DNA of 64,000 nt from Deltaproteobacteria bacterium (GTDB taxonomy: Bacteria; Myxococcota; Kuafuiibacteriia; Kuafuiibacteriales; Kuafuiibacteriaceae). The notes under the pieces are model-generated. The model did no database searches, had not been told where the DNA came from, and worked only from the letters and a program-made list of their open reading frames with translations. The stretch's first letter is position 1; the number at the start of each line of letters is the position of its first letter. Position numbers and translations under genes: made by a program. Below, piece after piece: positions 35,254 to 53,477 of the stretch. The stretch is taken from NCBI GenBank assembly GCA_040218735.1, contig JAVJQW010000033.1:96001-160000 (forward strand), written 5' to 3'.

Positions 35254-35264
35254 CCTCGCTCGTC

Positions 35265-35446
35265 GAGAGCTGACCCGGTGACGAGACGGCCGCTCGCCGG
35301 CCCTCGACGCGCCTGCTCGAACCGCGGCCTTCGGCCGCCCTTTCGGGCCGCTCGGTCCCTGGGACCCACCCAACTCCCTCCGCGGCGGCTCGACCGTGCG
35401 CGCCGATGACTCGACGAGCGCCTCCCTCGTCACCGGATCAGCTCTC
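35265..35446. repeat. MITE/REP-like long inverted repeat element
   Basis: GAGAGCTGACCCGGTGACGAG (35265-35285) and CTCGTCACCGGATCAGCTCTC (35426-35446) are complementary at 20 of 21 positions, with internal hairpins. Confidence 0.7.
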
Positions 35447-37023
35447 TAGCGCCGCTCCTGCGCGGCGACCTCGCGTTCGAGGCGGTCGAGCTCCCGCGCC
35501 CACACGTCCTGCTGACCTTGGTACGTGAACAGGTTGTTGATCTCCGCGACGAGCGCGTCCGCGCCGGCCGTCTGCAGACCTCGCGCGCGCGTGAGCAGGC
35601 GCTTCGTCGCGGTGGGGAGGGCGACGCGCTGAGCCTTCGGAGGAGCCGGCGGCGGCTCCGCCGGGGCCGGTGCAGGGCGCGGACGCGCGCGGGTGCGCTT
35701 CGGCTCCGGCCTGGGTTCGCGCGCCGGCTCCGCTCTGGATTCCGGAGGGGGCTCGGGCTCGGGCGCGACGGCGGCGACCGGGGTCGGCCGCGGGGTGATG
35801 CCGGGCGCCGCGGTCGGCTGCGGGCTCACGGCGACGGGCGGGGCTTCGACCGGTGCGGGCTGTGTCAACTCGTCTTGCAAGACCATCCCGCCACCGACGG
35901 CGCCGGCGAGCAGCGCGATCTGCAGCGCGATGCGCCCCGCGCGAGACTTCTCACGGCGCTCCGGGAGCGGGGTCTGCAGGAGCGCAGGGGTGTTCTCGAA
36001 CGTCGGGTCCGCGGGGACTTCGACCGGAACCTTGGGCTGCGAGAGCTTGGTGTGCCCGAGATCGAGCCGGCCCAGATCGGTGACTTCACTCTTGGAGGCG
36101 GCGAGCTCCTCCCACAGAAGCTGCCCGGCGAGGAACCACGCGGCGCCGGGTGCTTTGCGTTCCCCCGCGATGCGCTCGAGCGCGCGCTCGAACTCGGCCG
36201 CGTTGGCGAAGCGCTGTGCGGCGTCGTGCGCGAGCGCCTTCGCGAGGACGGTGTCGAGCGCGGAGGGGAGCTCGGAACGAACGCTCGACGGCGCGCGCCA
36301 CGGCGGCGCCGCGCACGCGAGGACACGATTGCCGCTCGCCTCCGTCTTCACGAACGGCTCCTGCGTCGCGAGCTCCCACAGGATCAACCCCGCGAGGTAC
36401 ACGTCCGTGCGCTGGTCGGTCGCCTCGCCGAACACCTGCTCCGGCGCCATGTACCCCGGCGACCCCATCACGACGCCGGGCGCGGTGCGCCACTGCTGCA
36501 TCACCGAGCGACCGAGGCCGAGGTCGATGATGCGCGCGTGGGCGTCCTCGCCGAGCACGATGTTGCGCGGGGAGAGATCGCGGTGGACCGCGAGGAGCGG
36601 CGTGCCGTCGTCGAGCGCCGCGGTGTGGATCGCCGCGAGGCCCGCGAGGACGTCGAGCCCGATCTCCGCGGCGGCCTGGAAGGTCATCCGGATGTCGGCC
36701 TTCGCGAGCTCCTCGAAGAGCCGCGCGAGGGTCCACCCCGCGACGTACTCCATCGCGATGTACGGCGTGCCGTCGACGAGGCCGGCGTCGTAGACCCGCG
36801 CGACGTGGGCGCAGTCGATCTTCAGCGCGAGCCGCGCCTCGTGCGCGAAGCGTTGGCGGACCCGCTCCTGGTCCACGAGGTCGGCGTGCATCCGCTTTAC
36901 GACGACGACGCTCGGCCAGCCTGGCTCCGGCTCCAGCACGCGCGCGATGTGGACGTCCCCGGTGGCACCGAGCCCGATGCGCTTCAGGAGGGCGTAGCGC
37001 CCGAAGTACTCGACGTCGTGCAC
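35446..37023 (-). CDS. Membrane Ser/Thr protein kinase with Pro-rich extracytoplasmic tail
   Basis: FGRY, GLGATGDV, HRDLSPRN, DLG and GSPGYMAPEQ motifs, a TM helix and a Pro-rich linker. Confidence 0.9.
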   Translation of the reverse strand: MHDVEYFGRYALLKRIGLGATGDVHIARVLEPEPGWPSVVVVKRMHADLVDQERVRQRFAHEARLALKIDCAHVARVYDAGLVDGTPYIAMEYVAGWTLARLFEELAKADIRMTFQAAAEIGLDVLAGLAAIHTAALDDGTPLLAVHRDLSPRNIVLGEDAHARIIDLGLGRSVMQQWRTAPGVVMGSPGYMAPEQVFGEATDQRTDVYLAGLILWELATQEPFVKTEASGNRVLACAAPPWRAPSSVRSELPSALDTVLAKALAHDAAQRFANAAEFERALERIAGERKAPGAAWFLAGQLLWEELAASKSEVTDLGRLDLGHTKLSQPKVPVEVPADPTFENTPALLQTPLPERREKSRAGRIALQIALLAGAVGGGMVLQDELTQPAPVEAPPVAVSPQPTAAPGITPRPTPVAAVAPEPEPPPESRAEPAREPRPEPKRTRARPRPAPAPAEPPPAPPKAQRVALPTATKRLLTRARGLQTAGADALVAEINNLFTYQGQQDVWARELDRLEREVAAQERR

Positions 37024-37073
37024 GCGAAGGACCGCCCCCTCCAAGGTACAACAAAACCCATTAGACTACGGGG

Positions 37074-39434
37074 GTGCGGTCCCTGGCCCCCGTGTTCGTC
37101 GCCTTGTGCGCGTGTTCGTCGAATCCGCGACTCTCGGTGCCCCCGGAGCTGTCGGACGGCGACGCGGTGGTCTTCTACATCGCGGTCGAGGACGAGGATC
37201 CGGTGCTCTACGCGGCCGACGTCGCGGGGGAGGACATCGTCGTCCCGATCGACCTCGAGCCCGGCCAACGCGTCGAGACGGAGCTCGCGATCTACGACGA
37301 CCGCGCGCTCACCGAGCTGCAGCTCCCCCCGGGGCTCGTCACGTTCGAGACCGAGGGCGCGCCGCTCCCGGAGCCGAGCGCGCACTATGCGCTCACCACC
37401 GACGGCCCGCCCGCGGGGGCGCCGTTTTCACCCCTGGCGTGGTCGAGCTCGCGTCTCGCCGAGGCGCGTCTGTCGCGGTCGTTGCTCGCGTGCCTCGAGG
37501 CGCGCCGCTGCCTCACGGCGGAGGGGCTGTGTGTGGCGTGCGCGGGGCCCGAGCAGATCGATCCGCCGATGTCGCCGAGCCCGGTCGAGGTGACGTGCCC
37601 CACCGGGTGGACGGTGAACACGATCGCCAATCAGGACCCGCCGATTCAGATCTGTGACCCACGCATCGCGCAGGACCGGTTCGACTGCCCGCTCGGCGAG
37701 GCACGCAAGCTCGGCGACGACGCATGTACGCGCGTGGGCCGAGCCTGTCCTGCGGCGGGCCGATTTGCGGAGGGGGTCACGGGTTTGTTCGTCGATCCCA
37801 CCGCGGCCGCGGGCGGTGACGGCACGTTGGCGGCCCCCTACCGGACCCTCGACGAGGCACTCGACGTCGCGGACGGGAGCGCGCCGATCCTCCTCTCCGT
37901 CGGCCGCCACACCTCCGCGACGCGCAACGCGCTCTTGGACGCGGGCACCGCCGAAGCGCCGATCACGATCCGCGGCGCGTGCGCGACCGAGACGACGCTC
38001 GCGGGTGGCTTCGACGGGATGCGTTCGCACCTCCGCCTCGAGGATCTCGCGGTCGACGCGAGCGGCGCGTTCTACGTCGGTGCGGGCGGGAGCGTCGCGC
38101 TGGAGGGCGTGGCGCTCGAGTCCACCGTCGCGCCGATCCCGATCTACCAATCCAACGGGGCGCTGCTGCTGCGTGACGTCGTCGCGGACTCGAGCGGTGG
38201 CTTTGTGCATGCGGTCGAGTCGTCCGTAGTCGTCGACGGCGTCGTCGCGCGCGCGGTCGACGGGCACATCGTCGAGGTGACCGGCGGTCCGTCGGCGACG
38301 GTGCGCGACGCGGTGTTCGTCTCGGGGCGCCGCGAGCGACCGCTGTTGCGGATCGACGAGGCGACGCTCGTTCAGCTCCAGCGCGTCGCGTTCGAGGAGG
38401 CGGTCTGGACCGCCGTGCACATCGACGGCGGCGAGAGCGCATCGATCGAGGACCTGTTCTTCCGCACCGAGTCCGGTGTGCGCTTCCCGACGGTGTTCGC
38501 GGTCGTCGCGCACCGCATCAGCGCGAGCCTGCGACGCGTCTGGGTGCAGGGGGCGCTGGGGTTGTTCCACCTCGAAGCGCAGCTCGACGTCAGCGACGTC
38601 GTCGTGAACCCGGACAGCCCCGGCACGACGCAGGGGAGGCCGGCGGCGATCTGGATGGCCAATGCGTCGAGCGGCGCGCTGCGGCGCGCGGTGGTCTACG
38701 ACGCGCGCCGCCGCGGCATTCAGCTCGAGGCGTCGAACGTGGTGCTCACCGATATTCGCGTGCAGGGCGTGACGCCGGAGGAGGGCGCCGACCCGCCGGA
38801 CTTCCGCGAGGGGACCATCGGCATCTACATCACCGGTGAGCCGGCGACGGAGCTGTCGCGCGTCGTCATCCAGGACGTGGAGGGCGTCGCGCTCGCGCAG
38901 GCCACGGGCATCGCGTCGATCGGGCGCGAGCTGCGGATCAACGACCTCAACGTCAGCGCGTCGGGACCGACCAGCTGCTACGCGCGCGTCGGAGGATTCA
39001 TCGCGGGCGCGACCAACTACGTGATGACGCGCGCGCGGCTCGCGGACCTGCGTGGTCCCGCGATCGGCATGGACCTCGTCTCGGTCGGCGGTGTGCCCGC
39101 GCTCGCGGCGATGGTCGCGGACCACATCACGGTGTCGGGCGTGACGCGCATCCCGGAGTGCCCCGATCTGCCCGGCGCGATCGTCATCGCGGAGGGCGCG
39201 CAACTCGACTTGCGGAACTTCGAGGTCGGGTCGGCCGCCGCGCCGGGGATCGTGGTGCGCCCGAACACGGTGAACGCGGTGGACTACACGCTACTGGACG
39301 GGCGGTCGGGGCGGATCCACGACGTGTCCGTGGGGATTCGGTACGAGGTCGCAGACCCGCGCCTGGACGCGCTGGTGGACGTGAAGATCGAGCCGAGCGA
39401 CGGCGGCGCGGTGATCGAACACATCGCGCCCTAG
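37074..39434 (+). CDS. Cys-rich lipoprotein with DUF1565-like/right-handed beta-helix domain
   Basis: Lipobox LCAC, a Cys-rich segment, FVDPTAAAGGDGTLAAPYRTLDEAL, IRGACATET and beta-helix-like repeats. Confidence 0.8.
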   Translation: MRSLAPVFVALCACSSNPRLSVPPELSDGDAVVFYIAVEDEDPVLYAADVAGEDIVVPIDLEPGQRVETELAIYDDRALTELQLPPGLVTFETEGAPLPEPSAHYALTTDGPPAGAPFSPLAWSSSRLAEARLSRSLLACLEARRCLTAEGLCVACAGPEQIDPPMSPSPVEVTCPTGWTVNTIANQDPPIQICDPRIAQDRFDCPLGEARKLGDDACTRVGRACPAAGRFAEGVTGLFVDPTAAAGGDGTLAAPYRTLDEALDVADGSAPILLSVGRHTSATRNALLDAGTAEAPITIRGACATETTLAGGFDGMRSHLRLEDLAVDASGAFYVGAGGSVALEGVALESTVAPIPIYQSNGALLLRDVVADSSGGFVHAVESSVVVDGVVARAVDGHIVEVTGGPSATVRDAVFVSGRRERPLLRIDEATLVQLQRVAFEEAVWTAVHIDGGESASIEDLFFRTESGVRFPTVFAVVAHRISASLRRVWVQGALGLFHLEAQLDVSDVVVNPDSPGTTQGRPAAIWMANASSGALRRAVVYDARRRGIQLEASNVVLTDIRVQGVTPEEGADPPDFREGTIGIYITGEPATELSRVVIQDVEGVALAQATGIASIGRELRINDLNVSASGPTSCYARVGGFIAGATNYVMTRARLADLRGPAIGMDLVSVGGVPALAAMVADHITVSGVTRIPECPDLPGAIVIAEGAQLDLRNFEVGSAAAPGIVVRPNTVNAVDYTLLDGRSGRIHDVSVGIRYEVADPRLDALVDVKIEPSDGGAVIEHIAP

Positions 39435-39441
39435 AGCCTCG

Positions 39442-40236
39442 TCAGCGCTCACACGCGCCGGTGCCGACGGGGAGGCAGAACCGGTAGCTGTCGTCCCGGT
39501 TCGCCACCAGCACCCCCGCGGCGACGCCCACGACCGCGACGCCCACGCCGATCCCCACCCACGGCCAGGGGGACGACCACACCGATGTCGTCTCCAGCGC
39601 GACGTCGACGATCAGCGTCTGTCGCGCTTCGACGATCACCTCGCGTTCGAGCGGCGCGTAGCTCTCGGCCGTCGCGGTGATGACGTAGCGCCCGGCGGGG
39701 ACGACGACGCCGTCCGGGGGCACGACCTGTGCGCCGAGGGTCACGACGGCGGTCGGGGGTTGGACCTGTGCGCGAAGCACGCCGCCGCGCGGGTGGCCGG
39801 CGCCGTCGAAGATCTCCGCGAAGCGATCGGCGAGGCCTTCGACCGTGGGGCCGCGCGCTTCGAACGCGGTTTGCACCGTGGGTTTCGCGACGCCGGCACG
39901 CACCATCGTAATCGAGACGAGCGGTGGGGCGACTTCGAGGTTGGCGACGACGAGCACCGCGTGGGCGACGCCCGCGGTGCGCAGGCGCGATGCGATGCAT
40001 CGCGTGTCGGCGCGGCACGCGCGCAGCTCACGTCCGAGGGGGCGACCGATGCCGCCCGCGAGATCCTCCGGGCTGAGCGCGCGCAGCGACGGGACGAGTT
40101 GGATGGCGTCGCGCATCGCGCGGTCGAGCGAGGGCTCGTCGAGCGCGCGCGCCTGCGAGCTCACGACGCGGACCACCGTCGCCACCGGCTCGGGGGTCGG
40201 GAGCGCCGCGGCGAGGAGGAGAGCCGGCAGCACCAT
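39442..40236 (-). CDS. PEGA domain-containing exported protein
   Basis: Signal peptide, C..DTRC pair, PEGA-like VQPPTAVVTL...VPAGRYVITATAESY and a WSSPWPW TM tail. Confidence 0.75.
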   Translation of the reverse strand: MVLPALLLAAALPTPEPVATVVRVVSSQARALDEPSLDRAMRDAIQLVPSLRALSPEDLAGGIGRPLGRELRACRADTRCIASRLRTAGVAHAVLVVANLEVAPPLVSITMVRAGVAKPTVQTAFEARGPTVEGLADRFAEIFDGAGHPRGGVLRAQVQPPTAVVTLGAQVVPPDGVVVPAGRYVITATAESYAPLEREVIVEARQTLIVDVALETTSVWSSPWPWVGIGVGVAVVGVAAGVLVANRDDSYRFCLPVGTGACER

Positions 40237-41135
40237 CACGCGTCGTACTGGTCCGGTCGTTGGTCCTCGACGAGCTTCCAGCCCGAGGGGTCGGGGCGAC
40301 GGAGCAGCTCGAGATCGACGTCCGCCAACACGAGCCCCTCGTGGCTGCGGTCGTTCTCGATCGGGCCGTTCGGGCCGGCGACGTAGCTCTCCCCGAAGTA
40401 GTGCACGGCGAACGGCGGCTCGACGCCGTAGCGGTTCGAGCCGGCGATGAAGAGCCGGTGGCGCGCGGCGTCGACGAGGAACTCCATCATCCACATCCGC
40501 TCGGACTTCTCGCCGAACGTGACGGCCGGCGAGAACACGAGCTCGGCGCCGCGCCGTTTGAGCGTCCGCATCACGCCTTCGAAGTGACGGTCGTAGCAGA
40601 TGGCTACGCCGATCGTCGCGTAGCGCGTCGCGAAGACCGGGAAGAGGTCGCCGTCGGCCTCGTCGGCGCGGCCGTAGTAGAAGCCTTCGAAGAAGGTGCC
40701 CTTCTCGTTCGAGCCGTGCGGGATGTGCGTCTTGCGGTAGCGGCCGAGGTTCTTGCCGTCGGCGTCGAGCACGACCGCGGCGTTGAAGCGCCGGCCGTCC
40801 GGCGCGAGCTCGTAGATCGGCGCGACGATGACGATCTGAAGCTCCTCGGCGAGCGCCGACATGCGTCGCACCGTCGGCCCGTCTTCGGCGGATTCGGCGA
40901 GCGCCTTCCACATCTCGATCTTCGTCGCGGCGAAGTACGGCGCGGCGAACAGCTCGCCGAGGCCGATCATCTGCACGCCGGCCGCGACCGCTTCGCGAAT
41001 CAGGCGTTCGTGGTGGTCGAGGTTGGCCTCACGGAGCACCTCGAGGTGGGGAGCGAGTGACTCCAGGTCCTCGATACGCGCGGGCATCGGCGCGTACGCG
41101 TTCCGGGTCTCGGTCATGGCGATGCGTAGGTTCAT
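40236..41135 (-). CDS. Nitrilase/carbon-nitrogen hydrolase (beta-ureidopropionase / N-carbamoyl amidase-like)
   Basis: Catalytic triad E (GELF), K (YRKTHIP) and C (ICYDRHF). Confidence 0.9.
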   Translation of the reverse strand: MNLRIAMTETRNAYAPMPARIEDLESLAPHLEVLREANLDHHERLIREAVAAGVQMIGLGELFAAPYFAATKIEMWKALAESAEDGPTVRRMSALAEELQIVIVAPIYELAPDGRRFNAAVVLDADGKNLGRYRKTHIPHGSNEKGTFFEGFYYGRADEADGDLFPVFATRYATIGVAICYDRHFEGVMRTLKRRGAELVFSPAVTFGEKSERMWMMEFLVDAARHRLFIAGSNRYGVEPPFAVHYFGESYVAGPNGPIENDRSHEGLVLADVDLELLRRPDPSGWKLVEDQRPDQYDA

Positions 41136-41199
41136 CTCGGGTGCGGTCCGCGGACGCTACCTCGGGATCGTCCCTGGATCTACGCGGTCGGCGTCCGCT

Positions 41200-42909
41200 A
41201 TGAGCGAGGTGATGAAGGCTCTACGCCGCGCCGCGTTGGCGTCGATGGTCGCGCTCGGATGCGCCTCGAACGGGAAGGGGAAGGACGTCGTGGCGACCTC
41301 CGCGGCCGGGCTCGACCCGGCGCAGGTCGTCGCGATGTACATCGAGCGGTCCTTCGAGGAGCACCCGGACGTCGCGCGCGGCGCCGGTCTGCACGACTAC
41401 GACGGGCGCGTCGAGGAGGTCTCGAAGGCGGCCGTCGAGCGGCGGCTGGCGCGGGCGAAGGTCTACGTGGAGACCGTGAACGCGATCGATCCGGCGTCCG
41501 TCGAGGATCCGGTCCGCCTCGATCTCGAGCTGACACGGCTCGACGCGCTGCAGACGATCTTCGGAATCGAGCAGACGGAGGAGCACAGGAAGGTGCTGAG
41601 CTACGCCGGGCTCTTCGATACCAGCGGGTACCTCTCGCGCGACTACGCGCCGCTCGAGGTCCGCGTCGGCAAGTTGCTCGACCACGCGGCAGCCGCGACC
41701 GTGCGCGTCGACGACGTGCTCGCGATCCTGGATCCGAAGCAGCCGCGGACGCACCTCGCGACCGCCAAGGGGATGCTCGGGGGCTATCGATCGTTCTACG
41801 AAGGTGACGTCGCGACGCAGTCGAAGCCGGCGCTCGACGCGGAACCCGCGTTGGCGAAGCGCTTCGCGGAGGTGGTGCCGGCGCTCCTCGCGGCCGTGGA
41901 CCGGCTCATCGCGTGGATCGATGCGCACGAGGCCGAGGCGACCGATGACTTCGCGCTCGGCGAGGCGAAGTTCCTCGAGATGCTGCGCGTGAACGAGGAC
42001 CTCGAGATCACGCTGCCCGAGCTCCAACGAATGGCCGATGCGAACTACCGAGCGAACTACGACGCCTACGTAGCGACGGCGAAGCGGATCGATCCGAACA
42101 AGTCGGTGCAGGAGGTCGCCGCGATGGTCGCGGCGGAGCGGCTCCCCGCCGACCAGGTGATCACCACCGCGGCCCAGCAGCTCGACACGCTGCGAGAATA
42201 TATCGAAGCGAATGACATCATCACCATCGGGAGCGACGAGCGCGCGACGGTGAAGGTCACGCCGCCGTTCCTCCGCTTCAACTCCGCGTTCCTCGACATG
42301 GCGGGCCCGTTCGAGAAGGCGAAGGGCAGCTTCTATTACATCTCGCCGCCGGACCCGTCGTGGCCGAAGGCCACGCAGGAGGCGTACATCCCGTGGGCCG
42401 GTGATCTGCTCGGCACTTCGATTCACGAGGTCTACCCGGGTCACTTCGTGCACGGGCTGCAGTTCAGGCGCGCACCGACGAAGGCGCAGAAGATCTACGG
42501 CTCGTACGCGTTCATCGAGGGTTGGGCGCACTACACGGAGCAGATGATGCTCGACGCCGGGTACGGCGACGACGACCCGCGTCTGCGCCTCGGCCAGCTC
42601 TCGAACGCGCTGCTCCGCAACTGTCGTTTCCTCGCGGCGCTCGGGTTGCATACCCAAGGCATGACGGTCGAAGCGGCGGAGACGATGTTCCAGGAGAAGT
42701 GCTTCGTCGATCCCGGCAACGCGCGGCAGCAGGCGTTCCGTGGGACCTTCGATCCGGGGTACCTCAGCTACACCCTCGGCAAGCTCGCGATCCTCGACCT
42801 GCGCGAGAAGTTCTTCGCCGCGAAGAAGACGAAGAGCCTGCGCGCGTTCCACGACTGGCTGCTTTCGTACGGCGGCGCGCCGGTCGCGCTGATCGCGAAG
42901 CGGATGTGA
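41200..42909 (+). CDS. DUF885 family lipoprotein
   Basis: Lipobox ALGC, HEVYPGHF, FIEGWAHYTEQMM, YLSYTLGK and AFHDWLL. Confidence 0.9.
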   Translation: MSEVMKALRRAALASMVALGCASNGKGKDVVATSAAGLDPAQVVAMYIERSFEEHPDVARGAGLHDYDGRVEEVSKAAVERRLARAKVYVETVNAIDPASVEDPVRLDLELTRLDALQTIFGIEQTEEHRKVLSYAGLFDTSGYLSRDYAPLEVRVGKLLDHAAAATVRVDDVLAILDPKQPRTHLATAKGMLGGYRSFYEGDVATQSKPALDAEPALAKRFAEVVPALLAAVDRLIAWIDAHEAEATDDFALGEAKFLEMLRVNEDLEITLPELQRMADANYRANYDAYVATAKRIDPNKSVQEVAAMVAAERLPADQVITTAAQQLDTLREYIEANDIITIGSDERATVKVTPPFLRFNSAFLDMAGPFEKAKGSFYYISPPDPSWPKATQEAYIPWAGDLLGTSIHEVYPGHFVHGLQFRRAPTKAQKIYGSYAFIEGWAHYTEQMMLDAGYGDDDPRLRLGQLSNALLRNCRFLAALGLHTQGMTVEAAETMFQEKCFVDPGNARQQAFRGTFDPGYLSYTLGKLAILDLREKFFAAKKTKSLRAFHDWLLSYGGAPVALIAKRM

Positions 42910-44019
42910 TCAGCGCTGGCGTAGGAAGGTGATCAGCGCGTCGCGATCCGCCGGCGAAAGCTCCAACCCGAACCGGTGACCCGGCACCGAACGCTCCGGA
43001 TCCAAGAGATCCTCGAGCCCCTCGACGCGCCCCATCGACAGGAGCCGCTCGCGCTGACCGACGCCGAGCAAGGAAGGCACACGCCACGTCCCGGTCGTGC
43101 GCGCCGGGGACCGCGCGACGGCGTCCGGCGTTCCGATCTCCTCGATGGCGCGGGGCGCGTTCGGCCGACCGTCCGCGCCGTGGCAAGTCGCGCACTCCGC
43201 ATCGAACGTCGCGTTCGAGGTCCACGCGGGGAGGGTGTCGGCCATGCGCCACAGGTACAGCGCGAGTGCAAACGCGACGACGCGCGGCGGGCGGCGCGCC
43301 TCCGACACCGAGGTGAGGAGGAGCGTCTCGAGGCGCACGGCGAGCGCGATGGGATCGTTCTTCAGCGTCGCCGCGCGGTGCAGGTGCGTCTGGTGTTGGA
43401 TCGGTCGGAGGTCGGGGATCGCGGTCGGGTTGTCGACGCCGTCCGCGGTGACGTCGAGCGCGCCGAGGCCCCACGCGCTCTGTTCGGTCTGCGTGCCGTA
43501 GAAGTCGTCGTAGAGGCGCCCGAGATCGAGCCGGTGGTTCGGGACGCCCACGGCGTCGGGGCGCGCGTGACACGTCGCGCAGGTGAAGGCGGGGAACACG
43601 CCGTCGCCGAGGTCGACTTCGACGTACGAACCCGGCCACACGCCGTAGTCCTCGACGTCCGCTTTACCGAGCGCGTCCGCGAGCTGCACCGGGTACGCGA
43701 AGAACGCGCGCTCCCCGAGCGCGAGCAGCGAGGCTTCGTCGAGCGCGGCGTCCCAGGTGTCTTCGTCCCAGGTCGCGGCGCCCGGCGTACGCACGCGCGG
43801 CCGCCACTCGTCGAGCGCACCCCACACATCCTCGCGGTATCGCTCCAACCGGCGCGCGCTGTAGCCGTTCGTCGGGTCGACGATCGACGCCTCCAGCGCT
43901 TGCCGACCCGCGCTCATCGACGCGACGTAGGCGCTCCCGCGCTCCATCAACGACGGCGTCGCGTCGCTGCGCTCGCCGCCGCAACCGGCGACGAGCACGA
44001 GGCAGATCAGCCGGCGCAT
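42910..44019 (-). CDS. Di-heme c-type cytochrome lipoprotein
   Basis: Lipobox LVAGC, two CATCH heme-binding motifs and peroxidase/RoxA-like WRVPSLLGV...GHRFG. Confidence 0.8.
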   Translation of the reverse strand: MRRLICLVLVAGCGGERSDATPSLMERGSAYVASMSAGRQALEASIVDPTNGYSARRLERYREDVWGALDEWRPRVRTPGAATWDEDTWDAALDEASLLALGERAFFAYPVQLADALGKADVEDYGVWPGSYVEVDLGDGVFPAFTCATCHARPDAVGVPNHRLDLGRLYDDFYGTQTEQSAWGLGALDVTADGVDNPTAIPDLRPIQHQTHLHRAATLKNDPIALAVRLETLLLTSVSEARRPPRVVAFALALYLWRMADTLPAWTSNATFDAECATCHGADGRPNAPRAIEEIGTPDAVARSPARTTGTWRVPSLLGVGQRERLLSMGRVEGLEDLLDPERSVPGHRFGLELSPADRDALITFLRQR

Positions 44020-44642
44020 TGCGCGTCCGAGCACGACCAGCGCTCGCCCACGCGATCGTAGCGGCAGTACCAGCCCGCCCCCGGGCAGTCGCTGTCGTTC
44101 ACGCACTCGTCCTGCTCCGTATGGCAATAGTACCCGACGGTGCCGAGGTAGCTGCCGCAGTCGCCGAACGTCGGCGAGCAGAAGTTGCCGGTGCCGCAGT
44201 CTGCGTCGACGAGGCAGTTGCCCTGGCGCATGCAAATGTTCGCGTCGGAGCCGAACCCGCCGTTGCACTGGCAGACGTTGGACTCGCAGTCGCTGTCGAC
44301 GAAGCACTCGTCGTACGTGCAGACGTAGCCGAAGCGCATCTGCAGGCAGCGCCCGTTGTCACCGTCGGTGCAGTCGTCGTGCGCGGCGCACTGGTCTTCC
44401 GGGTTGCCGCTCGGGACGACCTGTGGGCTCGGCCGCGTCATGTCGCAGTCGATGCGTTCGGGGCGGTGTTTCTCGGGGGCTTCGACGCCCGCGTCGGGGA
44501 GCGTCCCGCCGTCGCGTACGAACCCGGCGTCGCGCGGCGGCGTCGTGGATCCGCCGTCGCGGTCGAGGCCGACCGTGGTGCGCGCACCGCAGCCTGCGGC
44601 GGCAAGTATCAGAAATCCGAGGGTGATTTTGCCCGTCCACAT
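44007..44642 (-). CDS. Cys-rich lipoprotein
   Basis: Lipobox AAGC, RDAG/PDAG linker and repeated DEC..DSDC units. Confidence 0.8.
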   Translation of the reverse strand: MWTGKITLGFLILAAAGCGARTTVGLDRDGGSTTPPRDAGFVRDGGTLPDAGVEAPEKHRPERIDCDMTRPSPQVVPSGNPEDQCAAHDDCTDGDNGRCLQMRFGYVCTYDECFVDSDCESNVCQCNGGFGSDANICMRQGNCLVDADCGTGNFCSPTFGDCGSYLGTVGYYCHTEQDECVNDSDCPGAGWYCRYDRVGERWSCSDAQCAG

Positions 44643-44672
44643 GTCCAACGGGCTATAGCGGATGAGGCGGGA

Positions 44673-44701
44673 CCTCGGCGCGTGAAATCCACGCGCCGAG
44701 G
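44673..44701 (-). terminator. Hairpin downstream of the subtilase gene
   Basis: CCTCGGCGCGTG-AAATC-CACGCGCCGAGG, a perfect 12-bp stem 11 nt past the stop. Confidence 0.65.
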
Positions 44702-44712
44702 GACATCTGTCG

Positions 44713-46458
44713 TTATCGGCAGGTCTTCGAGCCGTTGCGGCCGCGGCACTTGTTCGAGCAGCAGTCGCTGTTGCTCGTGCAGGCGTCGCCGGGCTGACCG
44801 AGGTTGCAGCCGCCGCCGGTGTTGCAGTCGGAGTCGGCGGCGTCGATCGCGCCGTCGCAGTCGTTGTCGAGGCCGTCGTTGCAGCTCGACTCCGTCGTCT
44901 CGGTCGGCGTGCAGCCGCTGCCGCCGGCGAGGATGGCTTCCGCGGCCGAGGCCTGCACGAGGCCGAAGCCGTACGCGTTGTCGCGGCCGGCCGGGCCGAG
45001 GTCGAGCGCGGACTGCGTCAGCGCGTTGCGCACGTCCGTGTTGGTGCGCGACGGGTAGTGGCTCCAGATCAGCGCCGCGACGCCCGCGACGTGCGGGGTG
45101 GCCATCGAGGTGCCGTCATAGAAGTCGTAGCCGCTTCCGGTCGTCGAGAGGTTCACGACGTTGCCGCTCTGCCCGAGGTTGTTGTTCACGATCGCCTGGC
45201 CGTCCGCCTGCGAGAGGCTGATGGCCGGGATCGAGCTGGTGTTCCCCGCGCCGAGCGTGCCGGAGAAGGGACCCGCGACGTTGTTGTAGATGATCGCCGC
45301 GGCGGCGCCGCCGGCCTGGGCGTTCTGCACCTTGTCGTTGAACGCGATGCTGCCGCGCTCGCACATCACGACCGCGCCGGACCACGAACCCACGCTGTCA
45401 CAGAGGCCGCCGTCGACGACGGGGCCGCTCGCGCCGGAGCTCTGCGCCGCGAACTCGATCGCGCCACCGGAGTACGTGTTCCCGCCGACCGTGATCGTGT
45501 GATTGCCGATGTACGGGACCGTGCTCTCGACGCCGACGCCCGGGGCGGCCAGCTCGACCTGGTTCGTCTGCTGCGAGAAGCTCGCGACCTGCATGTTGGA
45601 GTCGATCGCGGCGACCGACACGACCGAGTCGTAGGACGCGGGGTACGAGTGGCGCGTGTTGCCGTCGTTACCGGCGGCGGCGATCGAGAGGATGCCGGCG
45701 TTGTTCGCGTCGCGGAAGGCGCGGTTCTCGAAGTTGCTCTTCTGCGCGCCGCCGAGGCTCATGTTGACGACGATGTTGCCGCCCTGCTGCGCGCACTGGT
45801 CGAGCGCCGCGACGAGCGAGGACGAGTACGCCCACGCGCAGTCGTTACCGAACACCTTCACGATGTGGAGGTTCACGTTGCCGTTGCGGTTCACGCCGAC
45901 GACACCCGTGGAGTTGTTGAGCGCCGCGACGGTCCCCGCGACGTGTGTGCCGTGTCCGCAGCCGTCGACGTACGGGTTGCCGCTGCCCGAGTCGGGCGAC
46001 GCCGTGACGTTTGCGCTCTGAAGATCTTCGTGCGCGCTGTAGTAGCCCGAGTCGATGATGCAGACCGTCGTGTTGCCCGCGGCGGTGTCGGCGACCTGAA
46101 GCGCCTGCACCATCGTGATGCCGTAGGGCGTCGTTTGGGCCATCGGCCATCGCGGTGCGTCGGCTTCGATCGACGCGACCCACTTGTTGTGCCGGAGGCC
46201 TTCGATCGCGCGCTCCGGGATGTACGCCGCGACGGTGTCGTACTTGGGGAAGGCGTGCACGACGTGGGCGCCGATCTCTTGGAGCGCGGCCGAGCCTTGT
46301 TTCATGTCCTTGAAGGTGACGATGAAACGCGCGCCGCGTTTGTCGGTGAGGTTGGCCGGGCTGTTGAAGCGCTTGCCGGGCGCGGCGATGGCGACGGTGG
46401 ACGTCAGCAAGGTCGCCGCTGTCGCGACACCGAGCCAGGTTCGAATCTTCGGCTGCAT
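44713..46458 (-). CDS. Secreted S8 subtilase with PA domain and Cys-rich C-terminus
   Basis: Catalytic IIDSG, HGTHVAGT and GTSMATPHVAG motifs, AAAGND, propeptide and PA insert (CERGSIAFNDKVQNAQAGGA). Confidence 0.95.
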   Translation of the reverse strand: MQPKIRTWLGVATAATLLTSTVAIAAPGKRFNSPANLTDKRGARFIVTFKDMKQGSAALQEIGAHVVHAFPKYDTVAAYIPERAIEGLRHNKWVASIEADAPRWPMAQTTPYGITMVQALQVADTAAGNTTVCIIDSGYYSAHEDLQSANVTASPDSGSGNPYVDGCGHGTHVAGTVAALNNSTGVVGVNRNGNVNLHIVKVFGNDCAWAYSSSLVAALDQCAQQGGNIVVNMSLGGAQKSNFENRAFRDANNAGILSIAAAGNDGNTRHSYPASYDSVVSVAAIDSNMQVASFSQQTNQVELAAPGVGVESTVPYIGNHTITVGGNTYSGGAIEFAAQSSGASGPVVDGGLCDSVGSWSGAVVMCERGSIAFNDKVQNAQAGGAAAAIIYNNVAGPFSGTLGAGNTSSIPAISLSQADGQAIVNNNLGQSGNVVNLSTTGSGYDFYDGTSMATPHVAGVAALIWSHYPSRTNTDVRNALTQSALDLGPAGRDNAYGFGLVQASAAEAILAGGSGCTPTETTESSCNDGLDNDCDGAIDAADSDCNTGGGCNLGQPGDACTSNSDCCSNKCRGRNGSKTCR

Positions 46459-46609
46459 GGGTTCTTCGAGCTCCTTGTTGCACCGCGCGGCAGAAGTGCC
46501 GAACGGTTGGGGCAACACTGTGCGGATACGTGCAGCTTCTTGAAGACTCGAACGCACCGACGGACGCATGTCGCCGTATGCGTCGAGATTGCGTCAGACC
46601 GGTTGGTAC

Positions 46610-49015
46610 TCAGTCGAGCGCGACGCGGTAGACGTCGGCCTGGCTGTTGTCGCGGAACACGACGTCCTCGCGGACGATCGGCTCACCGAAGCGGAGGTAG
46701 TTCAGGCCGCGGAGGTTGTTCGTGATTGCGCCGTCCGTCGCGGTGAACATCCCGTCGACGCCCATCGAGATTCCGGCACACCCGTTGTTCGTGAACGTGA
46801 AGCGTTCGATGAACGCCTCCGTCTCCGAGAGCGCGAGCTGAGAGCTCCACGCCTCCGCGAAGAACGCGGAGCCCGGGCCGCGGAGGTTGCCGCCGCCGCG
46901 GTTCTCCGAGCAGTAGATGTCGCGCTCGAGCGCGTCGTCCGGGACGTTGGCGCCCGTGCCGTCGACCGTCAGGTCTTCGACGTTCGCCAGGGCGCCCCAC
47001 ACGTACAGACCGTACAGCTCGACGTCCGCGATCGCGGCGCGTCTCAACGTCAACGTGCCGCTGCGGATGATGACGCCGATGCGGCCGGACGACTCGCCTT
47101 CGACCGTGAGCCCGTCGATGTCCACCGCTGGCACGAGCGCGTCCTCGGCGCAGTTGCCGCGGCAGTCCGCGCCGATCGCCGTCATGGCGTCGCGCACGAC
47201 GACGTTGCGGATCGTCGCCGTGGTTCCTGCGCACGGTGCGATGCCGGTCGTGAGCGGGCCGAGCAGGGTCAGGTCGTCGATCGTCATCGTCACGCGGCTC
47301 GGCGTCTCGGGGGCGAAGCCTTCCAGGCACACGTTCGAGACGCCGGGGAGCGGCGCGACCTCGGTGGAGCGCGCGGCCCCGGCGCGGACGCGGCCCGAGC
47401 TCGCGACCCGGTCGAGATCCAACGTCGAGGTTCCGAAGAGATCCACCAGCGACTCGACGCCGGCCGCGTCGACGTCCCGGAGGACGACCTGGGCGGCGCC
47501 TTCGGCTTCGACGACATCCCCCGCTGCGCCCTCGACGCTCACGCGATCCAACGTCAGCGAAGCGCTCCCCTCCGCAGAGAACAGCGTGCCGCGCGACGTG
47601 TGACGGATGCGGGCGCGCACGAACGTGAGGGTCCCCGCGACGGACGACGCGACGGGCCCGTTCACGACGTCGACGTCGGTGGCGCTCAGCTCGGCGCCGG
47701 CGTTCACCGCAGCGAACGAGTGCGTCACGAACGCGGAGTCGCTCACTTCGACACGGCCTCCTTCGACGACGAAAGCGGGCGGCGTGTTGGCGGCGTCGAG
47801 CCACACGCGGGACACGTCGGCCTCGCCGCCCGTGACGCGCAGCGCGGGTGCGTCGAAGAACACGGCGCGCGAAACGTTCGACGTCCCGCCCGTCACGGTG
47901 ATCGCCGCCGCGATGGTGGCTTCGAAGACGACGTCGTCGACCGTGGCCGCGCCAGCGCTTTGCAACGCGCCGGCGACGAAGTGCGTGCGCTCGACGACGA
48001 GCGCACCCGTCGACGTGATCTGTGGGCCATCCACGACGGTGTCCACGACGCGAACGTCCCCGGAGGTCGTGAGGTTGTTCGTGGAGAGCAGGACACCATC
48101 GAACGTGACGTCCGCGCCCGCGCCGATCGTCGGCGCGCCGACCAGCGTCGTCTCCGCTGGGCACGTCCCGCGGAGCACGATGGTGCCGTCGATCGCGGGG
48201 ACGGAGTGCTGGCCCGCGGAGAGGAACAGCGTCGCGGGGCCGGTCGTCGCGGCGAGCGCGGCGGCGATCGAGTCGTAGGGCGAGCCGGTCGTGCCGTTCC
48301 CATTCGGCGCCGCGGCGAGGTCGACGTAGACCTCCGCCCCCACCGGGTTCGCGGTGCCGCGCCACGGCGTGCCGGGGCAGGCGACGAGCGGTGCGCACTG
48401 CGCGTCTTCGAGGCGCTGGACTTGGCCGGCGGGGCACGTGCGGCGGGACGCGGGCCGGCAGCGGCCGGAGCCGTCGAGCGCGAAGCCTTCGGCGCAGGCG
48501 TAATTCCACGCGGTCGGGCCCGCGACGGCGGGGGGCGGTGCGACGTCGGTTGGCGTTGGGCAGGGCTGCCCGCAGACGAGCCGGTCGTCGAAGAAGTGCC
48601 AGCACGCGTTGGCGGCGTCGCAGGTCGACGGTTCCTCGAGCCGCAGGTCGTCGATGAAATCGGGCCGCGGAACGATCTCGTTCCACTGTCGCTCCACGCT
48701 CTGCCAAACGTAGGTGAGCGCACCCGCCGGAACGGGGCGCCCCGCCTCGGGGTCGACCTCCGCCGTCACCCGCCCGGGTTCGAGTCCGTAGTCTGCGAGC
48801 GCGCCCGGGTAGGCGATCAGCACGACGTCCGCGCCGGAGCCGATCCCGAGAGGCGGCGGTCGTTGTCCGGGTTCGAGTGCGAAGAGGATCGGGAAACCCG
48901 TGCCCTCACGCACGATGAGGAGCGACGCGTGGTCGGGTTCCACCGGGAGCTGCACGGGGATCGACTCCGTGCAGGCCATCGCGAGCGCGACGGTGATGTA
49001 GGCGAAGCGCCGCAT
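46610..49015 (-). CDS. Cys-rich lipoprotein with DUF1565-like/beta-helix domain (paralog of 37074..39434)
   Basis: Lipobox AMAC, YVDLAAAPNGNGTTGSPYDSIAAAL and LRGTCPAETTL. Confidence 0.8.
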   Translation of the reverse strand: MRRFAYITVALAMACTESIPVQLPVEPDHASLLIVREGTGFPILFALEPGQRPPPLGIGSGADVVLIAYPGALADYGLEPGRVTAEVDPEAGRPVPAGALTYVWQSVERQWNEIVPRPDFIDDLRLEEPSTCDAANACWHFFDDRLVCGQPCPTPTDVAPPPAVAGPTAWNYACAEGFALDGSGRCRPASRRTCPAGQVQRLEDAQCAPLVACPGTPWRGTANPVGAEVYVDLAAAPNGNGTTGSPYDSIAAALAATTGPATLFLSAGQHSVPAIDGTIVLRGTCPAETTLVGAPTIGAGADVTFDGVLLSTNNLTTSGDVRVVDTVVDGPQITSTGALVVERTHFVAGALQSAGAATVDDVVFEATIAAAITVTGGTSNVSRAVFFDAPALRVTGGEADVSRVWLDAANTPPAFVVEGGRVEVSDSAFVTHSFAAVNAGAELSATDVDVVNGPVASSVAGTLTFVRARIRHTSRGTLFSAEGSASLTLDRVSVEGAAGDVVEAEGAAQVVLRDVDAAGVESLVDLFGTSTLDLDRVASSGRVRAGAARSTEVAPLPGVSNVCLEGFAPETPSRVTMTIDDLTLLGPLTTGIAPCAGTTATIRNVVVRDAMTAIGADCRGNCAEDALVPAVDIDGLTVEGESSGRIGVIIRSGTLTLRRAAIADVELYGLYVWGALANVEDLTVDGTGANVPDDALERDIYCSENRGGGNLRGPGSAFFAEAWSSQLALSETEAFIERFTFTNNGCAGISMGVDGMFTATDGAITNNLRGLNYLRFGEPIVREDVVFRDNSQADVYRVALD

Positions 49016-49083
49016 GCGTCGAAACGATCCGACAGTACTCGAACCTCGATTTTCTCGCGATCCGGGGTGCGCCTGCGCACGTA

Positions 49084-50880
49084 TTGGATTCGGAGGACTA
49101 CACGATCACCGCCCCCACTCCACCCGTCATCGCCGGTCGCTACCGGTGTGGCCGCGTCCTCGGTACCGGCGCGACGAGCACCGTGTACGAGGGCCGAGAC
49201 GCGTCGACGGGCGCGGCCGTCGCGATCAAACGCATCTTCGCCGAAGTCTCCGCGTACCGAGACGGCGGGGACCTCCTTCGACGCGAGGTCGGCGTGGCGG
49301 ACCGTGTGCGCCACGAAGGCCTCGTGCAGGTGTACGACGCAGGTCAGGATTCGGACGGCACGTTTTTCATCGTGATGGAGCTTTTGTCCGGTCGCACCTT
49401 CGAGGAGCAGCTGGAGAGCGGGAGCGCTTCGGTCGCGACCTCGCTGGACGTGGTCGAGGCGGTCCTCGAGCCGCTCGCCGCGCTGCACGCCCACGGGGTG
49501 GTCCACCGGGATCTGAAACCCTCGAACATCTTCCTGACCGACGACGGGCGCGTGAAGCTCCTCGACCTCGGCATCGCCAAACACGCGCAGGACGCGTCCG
49601 TCACCAAGACCGGCGCGGGCGTGGGGACCCCGAACTACATGGCGCCCGAGCAGGCGGTGAGCGCGCGCGACGTGACCCCCGCCGCCGACGTGTGGAGCGT
49701 CGGCGCGTTGCTCTACCGCGTCCTGACCGGGCGCCTCCCGTTCGAAGGTGAAAACGCGTACGAGGTGGTCCTCAAGGCGTGCACCGAGGTGCACGCGCCG
49801 GCGACGCGGTGGACGCCCGACGCCGACCCGTCGTTGGTTGCGCTGATCGATCGGTGCCTCGTGAAGGCGCCGGAGCACCGCATCTCTCAGGCCTCGGAAG
49901 TCGCGGTCGCGCTGCGCGAGGTGCGGGCCGGGACGTACGTGCCGATAGAGGCCGCCGCGTTCGTGGATCCCGCGCTGGCCGCCCTCGCGCGCGCCGCGAC
50001 CGAACCCGGCGACGGCGCAACCGCGGACGCTCCGACGCAGCGCGCGTATCGCGACGTCTCGATCGAGCTGCCGCGCTCGAGGCGCACGAAGTACGCCGCG
50101 ATGTTGTTCGTCGTCTTCGGCCTCGGGGCCGCTGCGGGGGTGGGGTGGTGGTGGTCGGCGCCGATGCGGCGAGCGCCGGTGCGATCTGTTGCCCCGGAGC
50201 GTGGCGGTTACGGCGAAACAGCGGGGGGTACGCGAGCGCTGATCGGTTCGGACGCGGACACGGGTTCGGACTCGGTGACGGGTTCGGATTCGGTTGCGGG
50301 TTCGGATTCGGTTGCGGGTTCGGACTCGGTGACGGGTTCGGACTCGGACACGGGTTCGGACTCGGACACGGGCCCGGATCCGGTCACGGGCTCGGACTCG
50401 GTGACGGGTTCGGGTTCGGTTGCGGGTTCGGACTCGGTGACGGGTTCGGATTCGGATACGCGTTCGGGTGCTGCGTCGGGTTCGCGTACCGCGCGGCGTC
50501 CTCGTCGGGCGCCGAAGCGCGCCTCCGCGCTGGGCGCTGCGTCTGATTCCGTCACCGAGCCCGACTCTGCATTCGCGTCCGACTCCGAATCCGCATCCGA
50601 TCCCGATTCCGATTCCGATCCCGGGTCCGACTCCGAATCCGCATCCGATCCCGATTCTGATCCCGTGACCGAGTCCGAGTCCGAGTCGGACTCCGAGACC
50701 GAGTCGGACTCCGACACCGCGTCCGACTCCGCCGCGGCCGACGCCCCGGACACCACGCCGCCCATCCGCACCAACGACGCCGGCGTCCGCGCCGCGCCGC
50801 CGACCACAGTGGCGCCGCCGCCGCCCCCGCCGCCCAAGAAGAAGAAGGAGAAGAAGTCGGCCCCGTTCCTCACGTTCTGA
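49084..50880 (+). CDS. Membrane Ser/Thr protein kinase with Ser-Asp repeat extracytoplasmic region
   Basis: GTGATSTV, AIK, HRDLKPSN, DLG and GTPNYMAPEQ motifs, a TM helix and GSDSVT repeats. Confidence 0.92.
   Translation: MDSEDYTITAPTPPVIAGRYRCGRVLGTGATSTVYEGRDASTGAAVAIKRIFAEVSAYRDGGDLLRREVGVADRVRHEGLVQVYDAGQDSDGTFFIVMELLSGRTFEEQLESGSASVATSLDVVEAVLEPLAALHAHGVVHRDLKPSNIFLTDDGRVKLLDLGIAKHAQDASVTKTGAGVGTPNYMAPEQAVSARDVTPAADVWSVGALLYRVLTGRLPFEGENAYEVVLKACTEVHAPATRWTPDADPSLVALIDRCLVKAPEHRISQASEVAVALREVRAGTYVPIEAAAFVDPALAALARAATEPGDGATADAPTQRAYRDVSIELPRSRRTKYAAMLFVVFGLGAAAGVGWWWSAPMRRAPVRSVAPERGGYGETAGGTRALIGSDADTGSDSVTGSDSVAGSDSVAGSDSVTGSDSDTGSDSDTGPDPVTGSDSVTGSGSVAGSDSVTGSDSDTRSGAASGSRTARRPRRAPKRASALGAASDSVTEPDSAFASDSESASDPDSDSDPGSDSESASDPDSDPVTESESESDSETESDSDTASDSAAADAPDTTPPIRTNDAGVRAAPPTTVAPPPPPPPKKKKEKKSAPFLTF
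50245..50730 (+). repeat. 18-bp tandem repeats (about 12 units) plus a second, roughly reverse-complementary repeat block
   Basis: GGTTCGGACTCGGTGACG-type units at 50245-50460 and a C-rich block at about 50541-50730. Confidence 0.85.
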
Positions 50881-50908
50881 CCTCGGCCTCAGGAGAGCCC
50901 CCGCCCCC

Positions 50909-52691: not shown

Positions 52692-53477
52692 TTACACCGG
52701 ATCGACGAAGAAGGTCGCGACGAGGATCAACCTCAGCGAGACGTCGCCGCGCGGTTTCTGCTTCTGGTCCGCCGTGTCCAACGACAGGCGCGTGCGGACG
52801 CGCAGCGCCATCTCCTTGCACTTGAGCGGATCCGCGACGCCGCCGTCGATCATCTGGTTCTCGAGGCACCGCTCGTCCGCGAGCTGCGCGTTGAGGAAGC
52901 TCTCGCCGCCGCGCGCCCACTCGAACTCGAGGTCCGCGACCTCGCCGGGTTCGACGGCCGGTGCCCCCGCGGCGCCGCCGTTCCGTTGGGCGCAGGTCGG
53001 TGACAGCTCCGTGCCGCCGACGGTGCCGACGGTCCGCCACGCGCGGCGGTCCTCGGTCTGCGCGTCGATCTGGTCCGCGGCCTGGACCTCGATCGGCGGC
53101 AGCCCGACATTGAGTGTATTCGTCTCGACGCGCACGACGAGGCGGTCGATCTCGATGCGGCTGATCAGCCCGTCGTTGATCGGTTGGAACAGCTCCGCTT
53201 GCTCCGGATCCTCGGCGGGGTCGGGCGTCAGATCGATCTGGCCGCCGTCCTCGGGGTCGGTCGCGATGAGCGCGTCGTAGCAGACGTCCGGGAACCCGTC
53301 CGGCCACACCTCCGGTAGCCCCGGAGAGCCGGGCGGGAGGAGCTGCGTGGAGACGCCGTCGATCGCGTCGTCGAGCGTGAGGTCGATGACGAACTCGTCG
53401 AGCCGGAGCTGAATCGGCACACCCGCGCCGCACGCGGTGGTCAGGCAGAGCAGAGGAAGGTACGCGAGCTTCTTCAC
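52692..53477 (-). CDS. Lipoprotein of unknown function
   Basis: Lipobox LTTAC and start overlapping the upstream stop (GTGA). Confidence 0.75.
   Translation of the reverse strand: MKKLAYLPLLCLTTACGAGVPIQLRLDEFVIDLTLDDAIDGVSTQLLPPGSPGLPEVWPDGFPDVCYDALIATDPEDGGQIDLTPDPAEDPEQAELFQPINDGLISRIEIDRLVVRVETNTLNVGLPPIEVQAADQIDAQTEDRRAWRTVGTVGGTELSPTCAQRNGGAAGAPAVEPGEVADLEFEWARGGESFLNAQLADERCLENQMIDGGVADPLKCKEMALRVRTRLSLDTADQKQKPRGDVSLRLILVATFFVDPV

Follow-up and report, generated by a model that had tools for sequence, protein, structure and literature searches.

The window analysed here is a stretch of 64,000 nucleotides from a genome of the Myxococcota (Deltaproteobacteria bacterium, assembly GCA_040218735.1, contig JAVJQW010000033.1; 11.6 Mb, ~70% G+C), and it contains two places at which a gene for a Hanks-type kinase lies head to head with a gene for a large predicted lipoprotein: pair A (kinase A and lipoprotein A) and pair B (lipoprotein B and kinase B; Table 1). 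The original prediction read these pairs as a module present twice, in which a beta-helix lipoprotein and its cognate kinase form a two-part receptor. The open reading frames (ORFs) and their translations bear out all four genes, and the gaps between the divergent starts are as short as had been claimed (29-50 bp in pair A, 68 bp in pair B). Homology between the two lipoproteins is borne out by BLASTP (E = 1e-12; 333 residues aligned at 26% identity, taking in the Cys-rich region and the beginning of the helix), and the motifs quoted for them fall on conserved positions when 20 paralogues from the host genome are aligned. The observation itself (pairs, gaps, homology and motifs) is confirmed, and the interpretation placed on it is partly supported. 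The claim that did not survive is that of a module present twice: kinases A and B do not group as sisters, and a common clade for them is rejected. On the reading favoured here, locus A represents an undescribed set of three genes built around a clade of kinases and a PEGA-domain partner.

Table 1 Genes and intergenic regions at loci A and B, in window coordinates
Feature	Position	Strand	Description
Kinase A	35446..37044	-	Single-pass Hanks-type kinase; longest ORF, TTG start; start at 37023 in the same frame
Divergent intergenic region, pair A	37045..37073	.	29 bp between the longest ORFs; 50 bp with the start at 37023
Lipoprotein A	37074..39434	+	786 aa; lipobox Cys14, beta-sandwich ~30-120, Cys/Pro-rich linker ~135-235, predicted right-handed parallel beta-helix ~240-786
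PEGA-domain single-pass membrane protein	39442..40230	-	262 aa; convergent with lipoprotein A, ORF ends (stops included) 7 bp apart
Lipoprotein B	46610..49015	-	801 aa; same family as lipoprotein A (jackhmmer recovers both)
Divergent intergenic region, pair B	49016..49083	.	68 bp
Kinase B	49084..50880	+	Single-pass Hanks-type kinase; membrane helix ~335-357, disordered Ser/Asp-rich periplasmic tail ending in KKKKEKKSAPFLTF
350-aa signal-peptide protein	50909..51961	+	28 bp downstream of kinase B, same strand; no Pfam match

Both kinases score well above the Pfam Pkinase (PF00069) cut-off of 31.7 bits (95.9 for kinase A and 173.3 for kinase B), and both are single-pass membrane proteins without a folded sensor domain, which makes it plausible that the sensor comes from a separate protein. 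In kinase A, the kinase domain (~15-290) precedes a membrane helix (~369-389), beyond which come a periplasmic spacer rich in Pro and, at the C-terminus, ~50 residues that form a helical segment. Alignment upholds the distinction in motifs that had been drawn from the sequence, in that kinases A and B both carry GxGAT and DLG, whereas ARGGMG and DFG are found in the unpaired kinase at 28331. The combination is rare: across the 270 kinases of the host genome that were aligned (from 279 kinase ORFs), 18 have DLG and 6 have GxGAT, and both occur together only in kinases A and B. The full set of motifs reads GLGATG, VVVK, HRDLSPRN and DLG in kinase A, and GTGATS, VAIK, HRDLKPSN (a canonical loop) and DLG in kinase B. 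In both kinases the Asp of DFG is kept despite the Phe-to-Leu change; in kinase A the usual Lys two residues past HRD is absent, with an Arg two positions further on. Phylogenetic analysis, using FastTree on the 270 host-genome kinases and IQ-TREE with the approximately unbiased (AU) test on 47 kinases, places kinase A in a host-genome clade of eight (FastTree support 0.98) and in an 11-row set (IQ-TREE support 97). Kinase B lies elsewhere in the FastTree tree, and with IQ-TREE, forcing it into this clade costs 91 log-likelihood units and is rejected (AU p = 0.004). The original prediction had itself held that kinases from unrelated clades would speak against it, and unrelated clades are what these trees give.

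The eight kinases of the kinase A clade are built alike: after a kinase domain and a membrane helix come a spacer rich in Pro or in Ser/Asp and, at the C-terminus, a conserved helical segment of ~50 residues. The catalytic loop HRD(I/L/V)(A/S)P(K/R)N is present in seven of them and DLG in six. Ser or Ala stands in the clade in place of the Lys of HRDLKxxN, with Lys or Arg two positions on (HRDLSPRN, HRDIAPKN), a placement resembling that in the HRDLAARN loop of tyrosine kinases. A same-genus genome (G001) carries an orthologue of kinase A that is 92% identical over 198 residues and is likewise divergent from an orthologue of lipoprotein A.

The steadier partner of this clade is a gene for a PEGA-domain membrane protein, which at locus A is hidden in a 489-codon ORF with coding-type G+C content at third codon positions (GC3) only in its last ~262 codons. 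Members of this PEGA-like family (~260 residues) combine a signal peptide and an alpha/beta domain, in which the Cys pair CGxDxxC is conserved, with a beta-sandwich of the PEGA type, a WxW-membrane helix and a short tail whose two cysteines are invariant. Against the Pfam PEGA model (PF08308; cut-off 20.8 bits), the window copy scores 20.2 bits (E = 5.6e-4), a paralogue at locus L082 27.4 and two others 15-17. An AlphaFold2 model of the window copy (predicted local distance difference test score, pLDDT, 82) shows an alpha/beta domain, a beta-sandwich at 150-211 and a membrane helix. Foldseek matches it to TolB (best E = 2e-6), LpoB and PelC and, separately, to transthyretin-like domains; the table of matches gives no aligned ranges, and on our reading of the model the former would belong to the N-terminal domain and the latter to the sandwich.

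A PEGA-like gene adjoins six of the eight clade kinases in the host genome. To extend this count to relatives, we called a kinase "clade-like" if it scored at least 299 bits against a profile of the kinase A clade; a PEGA-like gene adjoins 11/22 such kinases in genomes G006, G011, G004 and G012 and 10/17 in G010 (21/39 across five other genera). Counted without regard to clade, the host genome has 14 kinases with a PEGA-like match of at least 27 bits no more than 300 bp away. In nine of these the usual Lys after HRD is replaced by Ser or Ala, and three of them that do not belong to the clade of eight combine HRD-L-(S/A)-P-(K/R)-N with DLG. One host-genome ORF (C41:79874-82069) matches the kinase profile and, weakly, the PEGA-like profile, suggesting from its sequence that a kinase-PEGA fusion exists. 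The PEGA-like family was found in 66 of 81 genomes sampled across the phylum, and within the taxonomic family a kinase is adjacent at six of nine best-match loci.

A full-length member of the lipoprotein family stands beside three of the eight clade kinases, divergently in the window and convergently at C9:245535 and C54:77726, where chance would give ~0.04 (binomial p = 8e-6). In relatives, the same holds for 2/39 clade-like kinases, both in G006 (L048 and L054); at L048 lipoprotein, kinase and PEGA gene form a same-strand run, and the best matches of the kinase are members of the kinase A clade. The three genes are found together at five loci (the window, C54, C9, L048 and L054), and weaker beta-helix matches (29-55 bits) are adjacent to the kinase, or separated from it by the PEGA gene alone, at L088, L089, L094, L117 and L118. 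Across these trios the gene content is kept and the gene order varies. A single clade of the three trio lipoproteins is not rejected (AU p = 0.52), which is compatible with duplication of the whole trio. A structure prediction for a complex of lipoprotein A (17-786) with the tail of kinase A (390-532), run without controls, gave no answer (score 0.00) and counts neither way.

Two further loci of the clade were noted. Kinase C67:58883 is divergent, at 45 bp, from an 849-aa lipoprotein (G000:C67:60472-63018; L080 8472-11018(+)). Judged by a hidden Markov model (HMM), this protein is not a family member; it has no Pfam match and appears non-helical by eye, and a lipoprotein of another kind may thus occupy this position. 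At L081 (G000:C23:4001-24000), a distance of 10 kb separates two clade kinases. Judged from their first residues only, the neighbouring genes seem to include a polyprenyl glycosyl-phosphotransferase-like gene, two FHA-containing regulators, one of sigma-54-activator type, and a further kinase. This region may be an exopolysaccharide-linked signalling island.

The lipoprotein family was collected from the host genome by jackhmmer over six-frame ORFs, yielding 20 full-length paralogues of 700-1080 residues plus shorter partial matches. Their alignment reveals an N-terminal domain of ~100 residues, a Cys/Pro-rich stalk with 10 conserved cysteines, a cap motif (YV..GA..GDGT..PY.TL..AL) and a long repetitive region. 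Cys14 of the predicted lipobox is invariant in 20/20 paralogues and follows a short hydrophobic stretch, the residue before it being read as small (G, A or S). Pfam and NCBIfam models gave no match to lipoproteins A and B at E <= 0.01, and one orthologue has a weak match to DUF1565 (E = 0.077). An AlphaFold2 model of lipoprotein A (pLDDT 82, predicted template modelling score 0.77) has regular short strands over 240-786. In a Foldseek search of the PDB the top matches to it comprise PL6 alginate lyases (E = 2e-4), a fucoidan lyase, glucanases and phage tailspikes, all at ~10% identity and a template modelling (TM) score of about 0.2, and in a structure search of the ESM Atlas its nearest clusters are those annotated "Right handed beta helix region" in Myxococcota (TM 0.88, target-normalised, to a Beta_helix cluster). 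These models support a right-handed parallel beta-helix fold for the lipoproteins. Folds of this kind are typical of polysaccharide lyases, hydrolases and glycan binders. The predicted architecture, an N-terminal beta-sandwich followed by a disulfide-rich stalk and a fast-diverging beta-helix, would be that of lipid-anchored proteins of the cell envelope. Downstream of kinase B, at 53474..55903(-), lies a gene for another predicted lipoprotein, of 809 residues, with N-terminal Cys-rich repeats and no Pfam match.

Matches to the family were present in all 19 other genomes of the taxonomic family and in 30/41 genomes of a wider sample, at up to ~30 per genome; a library of 1.84 billion proteins holds 4975 cluster representatives at E <= 1e-30, and a word-indexed search returned five close relatives of lipoprotein A. 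At L071 (G004:C88, 6321-13318), three family genes stand in tandem on one strand, with a kinase ~0.5 kb later, in what is a local tandem expansion. Lipoprotein A and its same-genus orthologue are 52% identical overall; identity is 62-74% in the N-terminal 150 residues and drops to 32-50% along much of the helix. Judged by these identities, the helix evolves fast, and the lipoprotein as a whole is far less conserved than the adjacent kinase (52% versus 92% within the genus). The lipoprotein tree is a star in which 2/18 inner branches are supported (IQ-TREE), and it therefore neither supports nor rejects co-divergence of kinases and lipoproteins. A sister grouping of lipoprotein B with the C54 lipoprotein appeared in FastTree only and was discarded, as it is absent from the IQ-TREE result.

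The claim that family lipoproteins tend to have a kinase beside them holds as an enrichment in the host genome and fails as a rule for the family. Measured in bases, a kinase lies within 500 bp of 6/20 host lipoproteins (two divergent, these being the window pairs, two convergent and two on the same strand). By gene rank, a kinase is the immediate neighbour of 5/19 family lipoproteins, against a background of 6.4% for non-kinase genes in general (480/7449; binomial p = 0.006); the GC3-based gene caller used for this test missed one paralogue, giving n=19, and put a small ORF inside the C38 pair. Loci in relatives were taken from six genomes and, here and below, among the matches listed (150 of 261). 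In these a kinase lies within 600 bp of 5/62 family lipoproteins (G011 1/24, G006 4/15, G012 0/5, G010 0/6, G004 0/10 and G008 0/2), a count in which some genes are represented by two split ORFs and one locus holds three tandem copies. Pooling the seven genomes gives 11/82 against the host rate of 6.4% (p = 0.016), a value that overstates the evidence because the genomes are related and hence not independent samples. At distances of 0.5-6 kb from the lipoproteins, kinases are as dense as in the background (28 in about 980 kb), and the excess is thus confined to the immediate neighbour. The association of the family with kinases is real, involves a minority of its members and has no fixed orientation; of the 82 members, none but the two in the window are arranged divergently with a kinase. 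Two of 13 shorter, weak family matches in the host genome also abut kinases (G000:C60:12692-14065(-) and G000:C66:264832-266235(-)), and the kinase next to the second of these (C66:260980) is among the nearest relatives of kinase B in the tree.

At locus B, a profile search of the host genome found no PEGA-like gene near the kinase. The sister paralogue of kinase B is C55:251981 (Shimodaira-Hasegawa-like approximate likelihood ratio test support 99; IQ-TREE, 47 kinases), which has an ABC permease, not a lipoprotein, upstream of it and, 8 bp downstream, a gene for a 355-aa signal-peptide protein (L084 7971-9035(+)) whose N-terminus resembles, by eye, that of the 350-aa protein beside kinase B. 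The secreted protein of ~350 residues may be the partner that the kinase B lineage has retained. Genome G001, a fragmented assembly that is 75% complete, keeps the divergent arrangement of locus B, with a lipoprotein B orthologue that is 56% identical. Its kinase B orthologue (L106; G001:C52, 225-1367(-)) lacks ~145 residues in frame, including the catalytic Lys, HRD and DLG, such that the Gly-rich loop runs straight into the activation segment; the membrane helix and the ...APFLTF end are retained. Either this is a pseudokinase, or the gap results from misassembly in a genome that is fragmented and metagenome-derived. The closest lipoprotein B homologues in another genus (33% identity) have no kinase in the ~1.4 kb upstream of them. 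Pair B looks like a local, genus-level neighbourhood, and we regard a functional link from lipoprotein to kinase at this locus as improbable. Long, dipeptide-like repeats of Ser and Asp (GSDS/DSDS) were seen in the periplasmic tails of two unrelated kinases, kinase B (50200-50800) and C21:33339, and the NCBIfam matches of such tails to staphylococcal SD-repeat adhesins probably reflect composition only.

Taken together, these data lead us to favour, with about even confidence, a reading in which the window holds two independent juxtapositions and not one duplicated module: locus A would be a copy of a recurrent three-gene envelope set, and locus B a pairing with an unrelated kinase that is confined to the genus. 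Both lipoproteins would come from a large family particular to this taxonomic family. We rate somewhat below even the chance that the three products at locus A form a physical or functional trio. Starting from the gene content, homology, predicted folds, adjacency statistics and kinase phylogeny described above, we infer the physical contacts, the location of the lipoprotein, its ligand and the direction of signalling as follows. The set would consist of a single-pass Hanks kinase that lacks a sensor and a second single-pass protein, which carries a TolB-N-like and a PEGA domain; a beta-helix lipoprotein would be an optional third part. Kinases of this clade would be unable to sense alone, and the PEGA protein, anchored in the same membrane, would supply the missing ectodomain; it is the likeliest direct partner of the kinase, a role that would fit the fused kinase-PEGA ORF at C41:79874 (in itself a weak match). 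Where it is co-encoded, the lipoprotein may act as a ligand-binding head that feeds a signal, probably from a glycan, to the PEGA protein, and the Pro-rich spacer could allow the terminal helices of the kinase to reach across the periplasm. In a bolder version, which we think quite unlikely, the kinase with its shifted basic residue in the catalytic loop, an obligate TolB-N-like/PEGA co-receptor and exchangeable lipoproteins that set glycan specificity would make up a combinatorial three-part receptor, for which the 20-30 paralogues per genome would serve as interchangeable sensor heads, a few encoded beside a kinase and most elsewhere.

A number of observations weigh against the proposal of a three-gene set. 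An adjoining family lipoprotein is missing from 32 of the 39 clade-like kinases in relatives, and a full-length one is there at just 2/39; in G011, which has 24 family members and seven clade-like kinases, 0/7 of these kinases have a full-length lipoprotein alongside, and the lipoprotein is therefore at best an optional part of the set. Conversely, no kinase adjoins 14 of the 20 family lipoproteins in the host genome or 57/62 of those in relatives. PEGA-like genes outside the taxonomic family had no kinase within 1.5 kb at 3/3 loci. The p value of 8e-6 for lipoproteins beside clade kinases may overstate independence, because the three host trios could stem from one duplication. There are also points of method: the loci in relatives were drawn only from the 150 listed of 261 matches, the 299-bit threshold for clade-like kinases was set by eye, and our home-made GC3 gene calls are unreliable in the lower-GC genomes G012, G010 and G008, where distances from ORFs and HMM matches were used.

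The reading proposed originally, that pairs A and B are two copies of a two-gene receptor (a beta-helix sensor lipoprotein and its cognate kinase) co-regulated from short divergent promoters, accounts for the divergent orientation of both pairs, for their gaps of 29-68 bp and for the retention of both arrangements in the same-genus genome. It would also account for the co-occurrence of GxGAT and DLG in kinases A and B alone among 270; more generally, GxGAT is present in 3/6 lipoprotein-adjacent kinases as opposed to 3/264 others (Fisher p = 1e-4) and DLG in 3/6 as opposed to 15/264 (p = 0.004). The kinase phylogeny largely refutes this account, however, by placing the two kinases in different clades, and it is further opposed by the missing PEGA partner of kinase B, by the missing lipoprotein of its paralogue, by a divergent orientation restricted to these two loci among the 82 members examined and by the sister-species kinase B orthologue without a catalytic core. 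No sigma-70-like site was found in 35000..51500, both intergenic regions included, and no promoter motif shared between the two regions was seen by eye. We consider a duplicated receptor very unlikely. As for the broader notion of a two-part receptor, the paralogous beta-helix lipoproteins, the enrichment of kinases beside them and the lack of a folded sensor in the kinases speak for it, while the unrelated kinases, the minority status of the pairing and the steadier association of the kinase A clade with the PEGA protein speak against it.

Two other explanations set aside the idea of the lipoprotein as a sensor. With ~270-280 kinases and at least 20 family lipoproteins in one genome, some pairs could arise as a by-product of gene shuffling, without any functional link, and their conservation within the genus would be synteny. 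Such an account is in keeping with the lack of kinase adjacency in most members and most genomes, with a pooled excess that reaches only p = 0.016 in genomes that are not independent, with the variable orientation between loci and with lipoproteins that evolve far faster than the kinases. It does not predict that lipoproteins should stand beside three of eight kinases of one clade (0.04 expected), that the same kinase clade and a family lipoprotein should recur in another genus as a same-strand three-gene run (L048 of G006), or that kinases slightly further away, at 0.5-6 kb, should be at background density, and we grant it a small but appreciable chance. Alternatively, the lipoproteins could be polysaccharide-degrading enzymes of the envelope or surface, or adhesins for prey or matrix, with the kinases merely regulating their expression or activity from the cytoplasmic side. 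The top structural matches (PL6 alginate lyases, fucoidan lyase, glucanases and phage tailspikes) point in this direction, as does the large and fast-diverging expansion of the family, which is expected of substrate-facing proteins; a subtilase and a DUF885 protein are encoded between pairs A and B and would suit such a context. These fold matches are weak, though (TM about 0.2, ~10% identity), and hold at the level of fold only, and the recurrence of one sensor-less kinase clade with a PEGA membrane protein alongside is left unexplained. This explanation too seems unlikely.

Myxobacteria have hundreds of Hanks-type kinases, many of them without a recognisable sensor domain, and to our knowledge the signal input to these sensor-less kinases is largely unknown. 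A recurrent linked partner together with an optional beta-helix lipoprotein provides a concrete hypothesis for ectodomains that act in trans. These results also correct the notion of a module present twice, in that the window holds no duplicated pair, and the lipoproteins belong to a large beta-helix family that is mostly unlinked to kinases.

Outer-membrane lipoproteins that report the state of the envelope or surface to inner-membrane kinases are familiar from RcsF-IgaA-RcsC and NlpE-CpxA; these systems provide an analogy only, as their kinases are histidine kinases and their lipoproteins are small. With known right-handed beta-helix proteins (Beta_helix PF13229, DUF1565 PF07602, NosD, and PL6 lyases such as PDB 5gkd) the window lipoproteins share their predicted fold, and the start of DUF1565 resembles the cap motif of the family. 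They differ from these proteins in adding a lipobox, an N-terminal sandwich and a Cys-rich stalk, and in having no match to a family model. In open-access full text, we found no description of myxobacterial sets that pair a kinase with either a PEGA protein or a beta-helix lipoprotein.

The statement that no module of this kind was known needs revision, as a comparable logic has been described. In the H1 type VI secretion system (T6SS) of P. aeruginosa, the lipoprotein TagQ and the periplasmic TagR (TagQ/TagR(-TagST)) act on the Hanks kinase PpkA, which they are thought to dimerise, and their genes lie near the kinase gene (PMC13713981, PMC6082577). In Serratia marcescens, secreted RtkS binds the periplasmic part of PpkA, and the kinase depends on it to be stable and active (PMC6082577). 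In a Foldseek search, a portion of the PEGA-like model matches chain B of the RtkS-PpkA structure (PDB 9k1u; E = 1.9e-3, 78 columns), a match to a small and generic sandwich fold that we take to involve the predicted beta-sandwich of the PEGA protein; RtkS and PpkA differ from the present genes in their T6SS context. We found no sequence relation to the TagQ/TagR system, with no direct comparison to TagQ or TagR having been made and T6SS/Fha genes not having been searched for.

The TagQ/TagR-PpkA system resembles the trio at locus A in its single-pass Hanks kinase, in periplasmic control by a lipoprotein and a second protein, and in the proximity of the genes. If the trio is real, it would extend this logic past type VI secretion. 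PpkA has its own folded periplasmic domain, in contrast to the Pro-rich spacer and short helical end of kinase A; here, moreover, the partner is predicted to be membrane-anchored (TolB-N-like plus PEGA), and the lipoprotein is an 800-aa predicted beta-helix. Because the components differ in fold and architecture, any resemblance between the locus A trio and TagQ/TagR-PpkA would lie in how they may work and not in membership of the same system.

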